This document shows positions 54,001 through 63,000 of a stretch of 64,000 nt of DNA, piece after piece; position 1 is the stretch's first letter, and every line of letters starts with the position of its first letter. The stretch is taken from assembly GCF_056746865.1 (NCBI RefSeq), contig NZ_CM163382.1. One strand, written 5' to 3'. Position numbers: made by a program.

Positions 54001-57000
54001 TATTCCTCCTTTTCGGATTTTTTAAGTATCGATAAGTTTATCTCTCAGCATACATGTTGAACAAAATATCTTAAACAATAAAATATATTGTTTCTCCCTT
54101 TTCATGCATCTAATTATATTTTTGAAGTAATCTGTGCTGATTGCATTAAAATAAACAATATGGAAAGGTTATTTCATAATACCTATAATAAATATTTTTG
54201 TTCGGTTTTTGGTATATAAATAATTGACATGCAGCATATATAATAAAATTATGAAAAATTAATTAATATATCTTTTACAATGTATCATTATTTTTTCAAC
54301 GTTCTCTTTGGTATTTTGTGATTAACATCACACGAATAAAGGAGTTTGTGAAAAATTAACATGAATAAATCCTGTACCATCGTTGGACTCTCCCTCCAAA
54401 AGTTGGACATCCAACTGATTAAGGTTAGTTTTTATGGCAAAGCCAAAATATTTTCTCTAAACCGAATAAGCTGTAGTTAATCATTATATTGCCGGACACG
54501 ATGGTACACGTCGTACCGCTGAACGTTTTGGTGTTGAAGAAACATCAGAGCGATGCTGGGTCAAGGGCTGGCAACTCCACGGTATTGATGGTATTACATG
54601 GCAAAATGACCGCGGCTCTCCTGAGTTTCGACTGACAGTTGTCCTGAAGGTTTGAGTGAAGAACTTACCATGCGCTAGGCCACTACACAGTTTAATATAT
54701 CAAATGAAACCATTATCTGGCACTGGGTGAAGGTTTACAAAGATACTGGTGAAGAAGGACTTATGAACATAAAACCAGGCCGGAGCAAGGACATGACAAA
54801 ACTGTCACGAACGGCGCAAAAGTGGCTCTTCCTTGGATGTATCTCTATATTTTCATACATCTGTTATCACTTAACCTGTTACTGTCCTTCAAACGCAGGA
54901 GATTCAGGGGGCCAGTCTAACCGCTAAGAACATGTTCCCGAAAATTGAGATAAACACGTTATGACAGCAACGTAAAATAAAACAGCGTTTTTTAGTCATA
55001 ATGAACATGTAGAGTCCGTTTGTTCATACTCTGTGATTATCTCCATACGTTCATCTCTGGCGCTGCCAGATAGCGTTTTCGTTCTTACAGTCAATGCGCA
55101 CCCGATACTGAATATCGGCTTTCTTCCCCCGGGCGGTGAGATGCACTGTGACTAAATTATCACCTTTACTTACCAGCTCACGAAGATTCACCCAGACAAC
55201 AGGATGCTGCTGACTGAAGATCACCTAGTCATCTTTCCAGTGAAGCACCTGTTTCTGGAGATAGTCCCGTTTGACGCTGGCTGCAACAGCCGATGATTCC
55301 TGCCCTTCACATCGTGGAAAACTGACGGTTCTGTTTTTATCAGTAGCCAGTGATGATACACAAATACCGAAGGTGAGCAGAATTGAAGAGAGTGTTTTGT
55401 TTATTTACAGAACCCCATCATGGATAGCTCATTGTATTATTACTTTACATTTTAACAACATAAAATATCACTTTCAGAAGCAACAATCACATAACTTCTT
55501 ATCCATTATTAATCACCTTATACAACGGGAGCATCGCCGCGCCGCATGACGCACTCTGTGCTCCCATCGAAGAGGCAGCTAACTTCACTCTGGGGCGGTT
55601 GGGATCGAGGCAGGCTTCCATCAGTTGATTCAGTTCCTGCACCAGACGACTGATAATCGGTTTCGGCATCGCGCCACCGAGTACGATGATTTGCGGGTCT
55701 ACCCACTGCACACAGCTGAAGAGCGTCTGCTCCACCTGGCCACGACAGCGTTCAAACCAGCTTTCCAGCAGTGGGTGCTGCCCGGCTATCAGCTCCGGTA
55801 GCTTAGTTTCACTGAATCCTTCACGCTCCAGTGTGGCAAGCAAATCCTTATACGACGGGCGCGGTGTACCGGATGGAAACGCCATCCCGACTTCACCGGC
55901 ATTGCAGAACCCGCCGCGTAGCATTTTATTCCCGGAGATAATACCCGCGCCGATACCGTAGCCAAGGTCGATAAAGGTTAGATCGCTGTACGCATTCCAT
56001 TTGCCGCTGTACAGTTCACCTACCGCCGAGGCGTTGGCATTATTTTCCACCCACGTCGGCCACGGCAGGTTGTCGGCAAACGCCTGCTGGAGATCTACCT
56101 CACGCCAGCTCTCCAGCCACGGTACGCTGTGGCGCTTGCGACCATCCGCTTTCAGAAATCCGGGCACTGCATAGCCAATGCCGAGAATACGTGCGTGCTG
56201 GAGCTGGCGCTTTTTCAGCATTTTCTCCACCAAGGTTTTGATCTGCGCGAGAGAGGCCTCCAGTGGCTGATTCTCCTGATGTGCTTCGCAAAGCGACAGC
56301 AGCTGGCGACCACTGAGATCGACCACCGTCATATCGATAAAACCGGGACTGAACGACAACCCGATAGCACAACCGCCGCCGGGGTTAAGGCGCAACGGCA
56401 GCGACGGCTGGCCGCGCTGCCCGGTATTGCGCTCCCCTTCCACCACCAGGCCGGAGAACATCAGCTCTCGGCACTGTTGGGTGATCGCCCCCGCCGTCAG
56501 TCCCGACAGCCGTGCCAGTTCAGCCCGCGTCACCGGGGCGTGGAGACGGATCAGTTCCAGCAGCAGGCGCTGCGAACCACGTAGTTCAAGGCGTTCAGAG
56601 TGGGCGTTCATGGTGTCCTTATTTTTCTAGTTCCAGCGCAGGCCTGCTTCTTCAATCAGTCCCTGCAAATACGGAATATCATCGTGGCTGAGCATATCAA
56701 TCAGCCCCGCCTGCATCCAGCCGATAATCACCGGACGACTGTCACAGCCGAATTTATAGTCGTACTGCTCCAGCGGCGTCATGCCGTTTTTCATTTCATG
56801 CAGATACATCCGCACGCCCAGTCCGGCATTTTTGTAGGCCCGCAGGTCGTCGATATGGGCGAACTCGAACTCAAAGCAGACGCATCCGGCATTGGACTGC
56901 TGTACAGCCGCAAGCTGGTTATTGTAGCGCTCCAGCGTCACCACCTGTAACGCCAGTTGCGGGATTTGCGCCTTCACCCGGTTGATCAGCACATGGTTGA

Positions 57001-60000: not shown

Positions 60001-63000
60001 CCTCAATATCGACAACGCGTTTATCAGCATTGTTATCGGCCATACGGTACTGACGCTACCCTATTCGATCCGCATTATGTCTGCGGGGTTTAAGTCTGTG
60101 CCGCAGGATCTGATCGACGCCAGCCGCGACCTGGGCTCCGGCGCGTGGGACACCTTCTGCAATGCCTATCTGCCGCTGTTAAAACCGAGCTTCCTGGCGG
60201 CGCTGATTTTTTGTCTGGTGCGAAGCCTGGAAGAGTTCGGCATCTCATACGTGCTGGGCGCGCCGGACTTTATCACCGTTCCGACCATTCTTTACTCTTT
60301 CCTTGGCTACTCCTTCGTCCGCCCGGATGCGGCGGTGGTGTCGATGATTCTGGTGATCCCCAATGTCATCCTGATGGTCATCATTGAGAAGTTGCTGAAG
60401 GGGAACTATCTGTCGCAATCCACGGGAAAAGCCTGACCTTTTACAGGAGATAATGTGATGAAAAAAACAGTGATGATTCTGGCGGGCGGCCTGCTGTGCA
60501 GCTCGCTGGCAACGGCGGCGGATAGCCCCGACCTGATTGCCCAAGCGAAAAAAGAGGGCAGCGTGACCTTTAACGTCTGGTACTTACAGCCGCAGTGGCG
60601 CAGCTTTGTGAAGGATTTTGAGCAGCAGTACGGCGTTAAGGTGCGCATCCCGGAAGGGAATATCGACGGAAACGTGAACAAGTTGCTGGCAGAAGCGGGG
60701 AAAAAAAGGGGTAAAATAGATGTTATCGCCTTGTCTGTTGCGCAACTGCCAGTGGCAATGGGAGCGAAAGCGCTGGCGAAGGTGGACGATTTGCCGGGCT
60801 ATGGCGACGCCATTCACCAGATTCAGAACGTTGACACCCAGGGTTATGCCGTGGCGTTCTGGGGCAACCAGACCGGATTTGCTTACGACCCGCAGCAGAT
60901 GGGTGACCGGGCGCTGCCACAAACGCTGGAGCAGTTGCAGAGCTTTATCGACGCCAACCCGAAAAAGTTCGGCTATAACGACCCGAACAACGGCGGCGCG
61001 GGGGAAGCCTTTATCCAGCGCATCGTCACTACTCAGGGCGACACGTTTAACAGCGAAGCGGAGAGCGTTGACCCGGCAGTGGTGAAAAACTGGCAGAAAG
61101 GCTGGCAGTGGTTTGCTGCTAATAAGGACAAAATTACCCGCACGGCCTCCGGTGCTGATAGTCTGACACGCCTGAATGACGGCGAGCTGATGCTGACACC
61201 ATCCTGGGAAGACCATCTTGTCGGACTACAAAAAACCGGGGCTATCAATTCGCGGCTGAAATTTTACGTACCGGAGTTTGGCATGCCTGGCGGCGGTAAC
61301 ATCGCTGCCATTGCCGCCAACAGCCCACATCCGGCGGCATCACGCTTATTCCTCAACTGGCTGATTCAGCCTGAAACGCAACATGCACTGAGTAAAGTCT
61401 TCGGCTCCACGCCGATGAACAAACAGCTCCGTCCGGATCTGAATGAGATCCCGGAGCCCACGGTGGAGTTTTATGGCAAAGCGTACAGTACACAGCTCAA
61501 AAAAGATTTCGTTCGTGAGGTCATGATGCAGTAAGCTTCATTTCGCGCACAGCCATCCCCCTGAAATCTGGCTGACTGTTATTTCGCAACAGTTATTGAG
61601 TAAATCTTTAACCTGTTAACAGAGGGTTTATGAAACGTAAACTTATTGCCTTTGTGATTCTGGCTACATCATCCTGTGGATATGCAGCCACCAAAGATGT
61701 AACAATGAATCTTGTTGATAGTGACGGAAAAGAGCGAAATATTGGTAAAATAACCATCCAGAAGACACCCTACGGGCTGCTGTTCACCCCTGATCTTCAC
61801 TCCTTACCCGCCGGCATTCATGGTTTTCATGTACATGAAAACGCAAGTTGTGCTCCTGCCCTGAAAGATGGAAAAACTGTCGCTGCTTTATCTGCAGGTG
61901 GTCACTTTGACCCGGAAAAAACAGGGAAGCATCTCGGTCCATGGTCTCCTGATGGCCACCTGGGTGATCTCCCTGCGCTTTATGTCACTCATGACGGAAA
62001 AGCAACCTACCCGGTGCTTGCGCCAAGACTATCTGAATTAAAGGAGCTCGATGGCCGTTCGCTAATGCTCCACGCAGGAGGTGATAATCATGATGACCAT
62101 CCTGAACCTCTAGGTGGCGGTGGTGCAAGAATTGCCTGTGGTATCATCCCATAATCAATCAGGTAAGGGATATCCTCCCTTACCCTTAATCTTCCCTGGC
62201 TGCATGTGCATATCTTTCAGTTACTGTGAGATACCTGTATTACGGTGTCTTTTTAGCTCACAGAAATATCAGACAGCCCGTTTCAGTGTTTTATTACCTT
62301 AATCTTTTTACGGCATTCTTCAGCTCTTGCGCATGCTATTTTTTCACCTGTTTCATAACATTGCTGGCAGCCTAATCCAAATTTCATCGCCATATCATAA
62401 CCTTCCCGAAAACCTCGGAACCACGCGTTACGAAGGTATTCATCATATTCCCCGCAGTCAATAATAACCATTTTATTTTCATGGGATTTTCCGGTATTCT
62501 CACTCATTTTCGATACCTCAATGCTTACAACAGAAAAGTATACTTTTACGAAGTTCGCCTTTGCAGGACTATATAAAGTTATCACTGGATGCAAGAGCCG
62601 GAAATCCTGTATATCAGGATCAACTTTGTAATTCAATAACATATTATCCAGTGAAAAAGTAAGTATATTTAAGCTGGGGAAGGAGAAGGGGGACTTGATT
62701 TGATATTTTCATCAATAATATTATTTTTCCTCCTCCATTATTCATTCAGACCTGGTTCCGGGCGTAATTCCGATTTCTCTGTTGAAGCGATGCATTTATA
62801 TTTAAATATTCACCTGTCATTGAATTTTATTTGAAATAGGAGAAAATCTCCTCCTGTACTACAGATAACCCGGAATGTTCCTCGAAAGAAAATTCTGGCG
62901 CAGAATTCACGCCCGGTTCTGTTCAACATCATGCAGGATAACGATACCGAAACGTTAAACTCTGGCAATTCTCGTGTTATACACAGGCAGGAGTGATTAC

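Follow-up and report, generated by a model that had tools for sequence, protein, structure and literature searches.

This study examined positions 55499-62154 of a 64-kb stretch (64,000 nucleotides) of Escherichia coli chromosome (NCBI RefSeq assembly GCF_056746865.1, contig NZ_CM163382.1), hereafter referred to as the window; all coordinates are positions in this window unless a locus is named. The interval comprises seven genes. A regulator of the ROK family and a glycerophosphodiester phosphodiesterase (GDPD)-family enzyme are encoded on the minus strand, and an ATP-binding cassette (ABC) ATPase, two permeases, a binding protein, and the Cu,Zn-superoxide dismutase gene sodC are encoded divergently on the plus strand. 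A preliminary description of this DNA had interpreted all seven genes as one possible host-adaptation module. The results reported here suggest, with a probability of approximately 0.7, that the interval consists of two accessory blocks, each acquired independently and brought side by side only by chance as the island was assembled, and that the first block (block A, the six-gene cassette) imports and cleaves a phosphodiester.

The open reading frame (ORF) list, which covered 53-64 kb, contained exactly the seven ORFs of the preliminary description, in the positions and on the strands given there. All seven scored above the Pfam gathering scores, and identical genes were present in the RefSeq annotation of genomes matching at 100%; the gene identities and the divergent arrangement were thus borne out. 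On the minus strand, the regulator gene (55499-56611; Pfam ROK, 86.2 bits), whose product carries an N-terminal winged helix-turn-helix (HTH_24, 22.0 bits, a weak match at a cutoff of 21.9), lies 15 bp from the gene of the 276-aa GDPD-family enzyme (56627-57457; Pfam GDPD, PF03009, 95.4 bits against a gathering cutoff of 23.6), and the two are probably cotranscribed. An AT-rich divergent promoter/operator region of 215 bp (57458-57672; 25% GC) separates them from the plus-strand genes, which encode a PotA/UgpC/PhnT-like ATP-binding subunit (57673-58740; Pfam ABC_tran, 125 bits), the PotB-like permease 1 (58737-59603; BPD_transp_1, 52 bits), the PotC-like permease 2 (59600-60436; BPD_transp_1, 48 bits), and a periplasmic substrate-binding protein (60455-61534; SBP_bac_8, 109 bits). 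We placed the start of the ATPase gene at the ATG at 57673 and not at 57658; the former is the RefSeq start and lies inside ATGTCAAAACTG, which is invariant in six orthologous loci. Because neighboring genes overlap (58737-58740 and 59600-59603) and only 18 bp separate the permease 2 gene from the binding-protein gene, the plus-strand importer genes were regarded as one operon. The junction between the cassette and the sodC block occupies 61557-61565, and the periplasmic Cu,Zn-superoxide dismutase gene sodC follows at 61630-62154 on the plus strand (Pfam Sod_Cu). A terminator-like hairpin with a 9-pair stem lies 3' of sodC (62162-62184, plus strand); past the ABC operon, it is the first site of this kind.

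The distribution of the interval was determined in 5,426 complete E. coli genomes, with presence defined as coverage of at least 80% of the 6.66-kb interval. It was present in 22 of the 5,426, at least 20 of them matching at 99.6% identity or higher. The locus is therefore accessory; it is not syntenic in the core genome, a state that the preliminary description had named as speaking against its proposal. The carriers were isolated mainly from chicken, chicken meat, or black kite, and a few from humans.

Boundaries of the cassette and of the sodC block

The region 55508-61556 aligned in one piece to Salmonella enterica subsp. diarizonae at 92.7% nucleotide identity and, again over its whole length, to Buttiauxella warmboldiae at 90.2%. 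This homology begins at the stop codon of the regulator gene and stops 22 bp past that of the binding-protein gene. From 61566 onward, the alignment is to a cassette-less context of E. coli strain 144, in which sodC follows dptFGH. The base composition also changes along the interval; the GC content was 56.4% in the cassette, 38-39% in its left flank, 48% in sodC, and 43% in the right flank.

Each block was also found separately. None of approximately 20 orthologous cassettes of other taxa carried sodC. A second cassette copy, 77% identical, is found in E. coli Z1323HEC0067, where the core genes rsmJ and dtpB flank it cleanly, with neither sodC nor insertion sequence (IS) elements. The sodC allele (at least 99% identity) occurred in 125 genomes, compared with roughly 20 genomes carrying the cassette, and most of the 125 lacked the cassette. 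The arrangements of sodC were read from 40 rows drawn evenly from the 130 matching records. In this sample, sodC stood alone from 61566 in 17 records, followed an IS66 element and a binding-protein gene reduced to its last ~60 bp in 10, followed the whole binding-protein gene, abutting hsdM, in 3, and was located on a plasmid in 1. These arrangements indicate that sodC has been kept within E. coli while the cassette has often been eroded. In strain 144 (L003, 1-7479), as in many genomes, the allele lies directly downstream of the DNA-phosphorothioation-dependent restriction genes dptFGH; the sodC block is found attached to a defence island too.

The unity of the seven genes would take the form of sodC being coupled to the regulator, the GDPD, and the importer by co-regulation and by co-selection for survival in the host. 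The genes are adjacent, the stretch from the binding-protein stop codon (61534) to the sodC start codon (61630) yielded no terminator-like site, the island carries a serine protease autotransporter of Enterobacteriaceae (SPATE) resembling Hbp/Tsh, and the carriers are chiefly poultry isolates, all of which speak for such a module. So does the identical junction, at 99.6% identity or higher in at least 20 genomes. The retention of the cassette-sodC junction in approximately 20 genomes, together with the eroded derivatives in which sodC keeps remnants of the binding-protein gene, indicates that the pair has been co-travelling within E. coli for some time, and this counts against two unconnected blocks. 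The module is nevertheless contradicted by the block limits at 61556 and 61566 and by the GC discontinuity between them; moreover, sodC is missing from every orthologous cassette outside the island, including the rsmJ-dtpB copy of E. coli, and its allele in the ~125 genomes lies mainly beside dptFGH or IS66 without the cassette. On this evidence, we consider an integrated module unlikely. Membership of sodC in one transporter module was not borne out, given the two boundaries, the GC jump, the cassettes without sodC, and the sodC alleles without a cassette. The preliminary description thus retains its accessory locus, its horizontally acquired sodC, and its plausible guess of a substrate, and loses the unity of a single module.

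The two-block reading leaves room for some transcriptional contact. The sodC block has its own 64-bp region upstream of sodC, and read-through from the ABC operon into sodC appears possible from the gene arrangement. SodC would detoxify exogenous superoxide independently of the cassette and may receive such read-through.

The type and origin of sodC were compared with those of known enzymes. The product scored 218.4 bits against the NCBIfam SodC equivalog (cutoff, 165), has a visible N-terminal leader, and shows the features of a periplasmic SodC. Its HGFHVH, GGHFDP, GKHLGP, GHLGDLP, LHAGGDN, and R..ACG motifs align with those of SodCI and include all Cu and Zn ligand motifs. The best PDB match was Salmonella SodCI (1EQW/6D52) at 220.9 bits, versus 191 bits for E. 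coli SodC (1ESO); the comparison with the core enzyme of E. coli used this PDB sequence, and blastn in "distant" mode missed the core gene (694 of the 5,426 genomes matched). Amino-acid identity was 79% with the SodC of an Stx2a-converting phage and 59.5-60% with the Gifsy-2 and Fels-1 enzymes, and nucleotide identity was 76.6% with the prophage sodC of 571 genomes, mostly of Shiga toxin-producing E. coli. The 79% identity to the Stx2a-phage enzyme and the higher score of SodCI relative to E. coli SodC agree with the earlier view that this gene is an extra, horizontally acquired copy. On these comparisons, the island sodC joins the well-known group of phage-type SodC enzymes as a new member. 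It resembles Salmonella SodCI (Gifsy-2), SodCIII (Fels-1), and the sodC of E. coli O157/Stx phages in being a horizontally acquired periplasmic Cu,Zn-superoxide dismutase beside the core enzyme. It differs from them in lying outside a prophage, in an IS-scarred island or beside dptFGH; it is flanked here by the cassette and by a hypothetical gene, an IS3 remnant, and a LysR gene, and in strain 144 by dptFGH. The role of Salmonella SodCI in oxidative-burst resistance is established.

The cassette in other species and its candidate substrate

The six genes of block A are collinear in S. diarizonae (91-99% amino-acid identity), Buttiauxella, Serratia sp. DD3, Yersinia pestis, a second E. coli/E. 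fergusonii type, Vibrio sinensis, Aliivibrio, Testudinibacter, Chelonobacter, Pantoea, Providencia, Klebsiella, Photobacterium, V. penaeicida, Grimontia, and Proteus, and the flanks of the cassette are unrelated from species to species. The cassette is probably a self-contained, horizontally mobile unit for uptake and cleavage. The strongest pointer to its function is gene linkage: the ~275-aa GDPD was linked to the transporter in 20 of the 24 distinct contexts examined, distributed over the Enterobacterales, Vibrionales, and Pasteurellales.

Individual loci showed further features. In S. diarizonae (L004, 10259-12778), a TraI_2 relaxase/helicase gene and a tyrosine integrase gene directly follow the closest relative of the cassette, and these neighbors suggest carriage on an integrative mobilisable element. 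In Y. pestis NCTC5923 (L007, 5819-6521), a ~700-bp insertion with a 169-aa ORF splits the ATPase gene, so the transporter is probably inactivated there; a secreted GDPD-family gene follows the binding-protein gene in the same locus (L007, 10318-11259).

The importer genes encode the parts of a Type I ABC importer in one operon, namely an ATPase with its motifs, two BPD_transp_1 permeases, and a secreted binding protein. The ATPase translation contains a Walker A motif (GPSGCGKTT), a signature motif (LSGGQQQRV), and a Walker B motif (ILFDEP). Its best NCBIfam matches were PhnT2 (361 bits), UgpC (333.7 bits), and PotA (330 bits), each below its own cutoff. The best equivalogs of the permeases were PotB for permease 1 (80 bits; cutoff, 348) and PotC for permease 2 (82 bits; cutoff, 326).

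The binding protein was likewise distant from every named family. Its NCBIfam matches were the YnjB-like PRK11622 (60 bits; cutoff, 203), YdcS, also far below its cutoff, and two PhnS models (33 and 27 bits; cutoffs, 310 and 395), and it does not rank as a PhnS equivalog; no match to the PotD or PotF equivalogs was obtained at E<=1e-3. In the PDB, the best single-sequence match (26.6 bits) and the best profile match (45 bits) were both 4EDP, an uncharacterized Clostridium perfringens protein. Similarity to the iron binders was too low for membership in that class (HitA, 25.5 bits, E=5e-5; 15-18% identity in fold alignments). The AF2 model of the protein had a pLDDT of 89.5, with the N-terminal hydrophobic leader disordered, and its Foldseek neighbors were FbpA, PotD, PhnS, AfuA, VcA0625, and P5PA at 13-18% identity. 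Among these, AfuA binds hexose-6-phosphate, VcA0625 binds glucose-6-phosphate, and P5PA binds pyridoxal phosphate. Sequence, profile, and fold searches of the PDB returned no close solved homolog that would reveal the ligand. None of the 389 homologs of the binding protein carried a specific name, and some were misnamed "LysR" or "potassium transporter Trk". The GpxB glycerol-phosphate binder (PNAS 2025) belongs to another family (TC 3.A.1.9) and was not among the sequence or fold matches. The binding protein therefore does not belong to a known polyamine or iron family, an assignment that the preliminary description had named as fatal to its proposal, and it appears, judged from its sequence, to represent an uncharacterized family.

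These data also bear on the possibility that the importer transports a polyamine, ferric iron, or 2-aminoethylphosphonate and that the GDPD and ROK genes are unrelated neighbors. Generic names in some sources ("putative spermidine/putrescine transport system") point in this direction, as do the best weak NCBIfam matches, PotA/B/C and PhnS/T, and the presence of FbpA and PotD among the fold matches. The scores themselves are far too low, with PhnS at 33 bits or less against cutoffs of 310-395, no PotD/PotF match at E<=1e-3, and PDB iron binders at ~25 bits. The collinearity of GDPD and ROK with the transporter over three orders of Gammaproteobacteria would also be unexpected for chance neighbors. 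We regard a polyamine, iron, or phosphonate substrate as highly improbable.

The GDPD enzyme, a cytoplasmic protein, has no signal peptide. Eleven residues were invariant in 10 orthologs with identities down to 54%, namely H18, R19, E27, N28, T29, E45, D47, H60, D61, E120, and K122 in full-protein numbering; they constitute the motifs H-R-G, E-N-T, E-x-D, and H-D together with an E and a K. The PDB matches were GDPDs throughout, and the solved relatives are genuine glycerophosphodiesterases. Its score against the UgpQ equivalog (PRK09454) was 107 bits at a cutoff of 264, and the enzyme is no UgpQ ortholog.

The regulator aligned to Mlc over residues 17-242 and scored 74 bits against the Mlc equivalog (cutoff, 530) and 70 bits against NagC (cutoff, 650). 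It has GEVGM in place of the EIGH of Mlc, and the CxCGxxGC zinc motif was found in none of 8 orthologs. Its best PDB match, over the full length, was the uncharacterized 7RHE. These features mark it as an atypical zinc-less subtype of ROK regulator. The divergent region 57458-57672 contains three palindromic cores of the form TAAATTTA(A), at 57501-57510, 57611-57619, and 57631-57639; the second and third of these lie just 5' of the ATPase gene, with a spacing of 20 bp. Four of the five matches to TAAATTTAA in the window fall in this region, where 0.77 would be expected, and none of 100 shuffles reached five. The boxes are fixed in six loci (77-93% identity) although the flanking intergenic sequence has diverged, and in Pantoea, Providencia, and Vibrio they are present but degenerate. 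The TAAATTTA boxes are thus candidate operators of the zinc-less ROK repressor. The search for a sigma-70 promoter of the ABC operon returned only weak hexamer matches and no precise promoter.

Genes adjoining the cassette in other species give hints of what is transported. Secreted GDPD-domain proteins adjoin it in Y. pestis (292-313 aa, with a visible signal peptide), and larger GDPD-domain proteins of 642-756 aa adjoin it in Providencia, Proteus, and Xenorhabdus (L016, 888-2816; L026, 9286-11223; L022, 2484-4754). The larger proteins have a signal peptide, an N-terminal GDPD domain, and a long C-terminal region without a Pfam match, and they may be extracellular enzymes generating the transported substrate. 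A 33%-identical homolog in Clostridia lies between the genes of GlpP, a glycerol-3-phosphate antiterminator, and glycerol-3-phosphate dehydrogenase. Because of the GDPD linkage, the secreted GDPD neighbors, and this glycerol-3-phosphate context, we propose import and cytoplasmic cleavage of a phosphodiester. The periplasmic binding protein would capture a small phosphodiester, most likely a glycerophosphodiester (the deacylated head group of a phospholipid), and the PotBC-type permease pair and the ATPase would import it. The cytoplasmic GDPD would then cleave it into glycerol-3-phosphate (or another phosphomonoester) and an alcohol, both of which would enter core metabolism. The ROK-type repressor would bind the three TAAATTTA boxes and be released by the substrate or by a cleavage product. 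The preliminary description had guessed at a glycerophosphodiester or phospho-sugar derived from host lipids, and this guess seems plausible, as it fits the conserved GDPD linkage. We put at about even odds the simplest version, in which the substrate is a classical glycerophosphodiester such as glycerophosphocholine, -ethanolamine, -glycerol, -inositol, or -serine (GPC, GPE, GPG, GPI, or GPS).

Several observations weigh against the proposed uptake and cleavage of a glycerophosphodiester. In some Pasteurellaceae, the transporter occurs with neither GDPD nor ROK, and the fold neighbors of the binding-protein model, which at 13-18% identity include iron, polyamine, sugar, and sugar-phosphate binders, would not fix the ligand. 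In Photobacterium (L021, 11185-12006), the gene next after that of the binding protein belongs to the inositol-monophosphatase (IMPase) family, a 2H-phosphodiesterase gene (PF08975) adjoins the cassette in Pantoea (L014, 2248-2952), and in V. coralliilyticus (L023, 4636-6883) the GDPD is replaced by a 2H-phosphodiesterase and a PGM/PMM-family protein. These accessory neighbors are hints of non-glycerol phosphodiesters or of cyclic phosphates. The usual signals of ROK regulators are sugars, for which a sugar or inositol head group is a better match than choline or ethanolamine.

The same observations favor a different substrate class, in which a sugar or inositol phosphodiester or a cyclic phosphate is imported and the released sugar or polyol phosphate is the ROK effector, as in the logic of the Agrobacterium acc system; examples are glycerophosphoinositol, inositol-1,2-cyclic phosphate, and an agrocinopine-like sugar-P-sugar compound. 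The hexose-6-phosphate binders AfuA and VcA0625 among the fold neighbors add to the regulator type and to the accessory genes of Photobacterium, Pantoea, and V. coralliilyticus in its favor. The E. coli cassette, however, has no phosphatase, mutase, or inositol-catabolic gene, and the closest characterized relatives of its enzyme are true glycerophosphodiesterases. The distant Clostridia homolog is tied to glycerol-3-phosphate genes, and the accessory genes are sporadic. We therefore find this substrate class possible but doubtful.

Island context in E. coli

In the carriers, the seven genes are preceded by an Hbp/Tsh-like S6 protease, an AbgT transporter, and a YebF pseudogene and are followed by a hypothetical gene, an IS3 remnant, a LysR gene, an ankyrin protein, and fdrA. 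IS66, IS3, ISL3, IS1, and IS4 elements are strewn around the interval. The protease gene (48254-52129, minus strand) encodes a 1291-aa S6-family serine protease near Hbp/Tsh (1263 bits to 1WXR, residues 52-829); the Pfam matches at E<=1e-5 were Peptidase_S6 and a beta-solenoid repeat, and the autotransporter beta-domain was not reported. The AbgT-family transporter gene (52441-54000, minus strand; 39% GC) and the segment annotated as a YebF-family pseudogene in matching genomes (54001-55498) make up a third piece of the mosaic with a composition of its own, located between the protease gene and the cassette. Downstream of sodC, a 119-aa ORF (62283-62642, minus strand) accompanies it and is 97% identical in strain 144; it had no Pfam or NCBIfam match.

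The first 48 kb of the window are common to many genomes and contain melA, a phosphoethanolamine transferase gene, a type I restriction-modification region, and then a multidrug resistance (MDR) block. From ~47683 on, the window matches a different and much rarer segment. The MDR block (~40900-46100) carries a major facilitator superfamily (MFS) efflux gene with a TetR repressor gene (tet(A)/tetR), two aminoglycoside phosphotransferase genes (strA/strB type), a pterin-binding (sul2-type) gene, and, by annotation of matching genomes, floR. It joins the island at ~47683, and this exact junction was present in no complete genome of the collection. The best coverage of 39001-64000 by any complete genome in the collection was 65%.

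Two other contexts were ruled out. The tagB/tagC SPATE island is located between yjdI and yjdK and has other gene content, and the paper describing it mentions neither sodC nor an ABC transporter. A plasmid-borne cassette was dismissed after a comparison with PLSDB, in which no plasmid covered more than 6% of the cassette. The interpretation as host adaptation draws only on the island context and on a poultry-skewed sample that is uncorrected for phylogeny.

Relation to known systems and significance

The cassette is already present in public genomes, where its genes carry generic names only. Searches of the literature by gene combination, Yersinia, avian pathogenic E. coli (APEC), and RefSeq protein accessions found no publication on it. 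The nearest functional counterpart in E. coli is UgpBAEC-UgpQ (together with GlpT/GlpQ), in which a cytoplasmic GDPD-family enzyme is likewise paired with an ABC importer that depends on a binding protein; the ATPase of the cassette is UgpC-like. The cassette permeases and binding protein are PotBCD/PhnS-like (TC 3.A.1.11-like), whereas those of Ugp are CUT1/UgpB-like. The scores of 333.7 bits for UgpC (cutoff, 432) and 107 bits for UgpQ (cutoff, 264), with no match to a UgpB model, exclude the cassette from the Ugp equivalogs. The cassette is accessory and mobile and has a dedicated divergent regulator of the ROK type, whereas Ugp belongs to the core genome and is regulated by PhoB.

The acc locus of Agrobacterium (AccR, AccA-E, AccF, AccG), which handles the agrocinopine sugar phosphodiesters, resembles the cassette in uniting ABC import, phosphodiester cleavage inside the cell, and repression by a local regulator. 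AccF is related to UgpQ and other GDPDs. The IMPase-family gene behind the Photobacterium cassette has a counterpart in AccG. The binding protein, the transporter, and the repressor of acc (DeoR family) belong to other families, and the E. coli cassette has no phosphatase. In the published description of acc, AccF is the phosphodiesterase and AccG the phosphatase that accompany the ABC importer, with the repressor sensing the product of cleavage (PMC4526662). The cassette would be functionally analogous to Ugp/UgpQ or acc but, on equivalog scores, belongs to neither.

AfuABC of Actinobacillus/Citrobacter and VcA0625 have binding proteins of the same broad fold class (4R73 and 8X1A) and import phosphorylated carbohydrates; binders of the AfuA class were long misannotated as iron binders. 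They differ from the cassette in that identity is 14-18% and their loci have no GDPD or ROK partner.

A further reading is put forward tentatively. The cassette would represent a new PotABCD-type importer family for phosphodiester head groups derived from the host or from eukaryotes, such as glycerophosphoinositol or a sugar/inositol phosphodiester, with a new zinc-less ROK regulator on TAAATTTA sensing the cleavage product, a substrate made outside the cell by secreted GDPD-domain enzymes in some lineages, and a recent move into poultry-associated E. coli; these elements are proposed jointly. If this is true, the cassette would provide a third route for scavenging phospholipid head groups, independent of Pho and Glp regulation, and its carriers would be Yersinia, S. 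diarizonae, Morganellaceae, Vibrionaceae, and Pasteurellaceae.

For the island, these findings mean that adjacency in a mosaic is not enough to make a module and that sodC, not the cassette, is the widely retained piece. The cassette itself is an ordinary accessory nutrient cassette of an uncharacterized family. If it is a phosphodiester importer, a function would be assigned to a conserved, generically annotated operon of pathogens (Yersinia, S. diarizonae, Providencia, Proteus, and Pasteurellaceae), the "spermidine/putrescine" misannotations would be corrected, and these bacteria would have a means of scavenging carbon and phosphorus independently of phosphate starvation.

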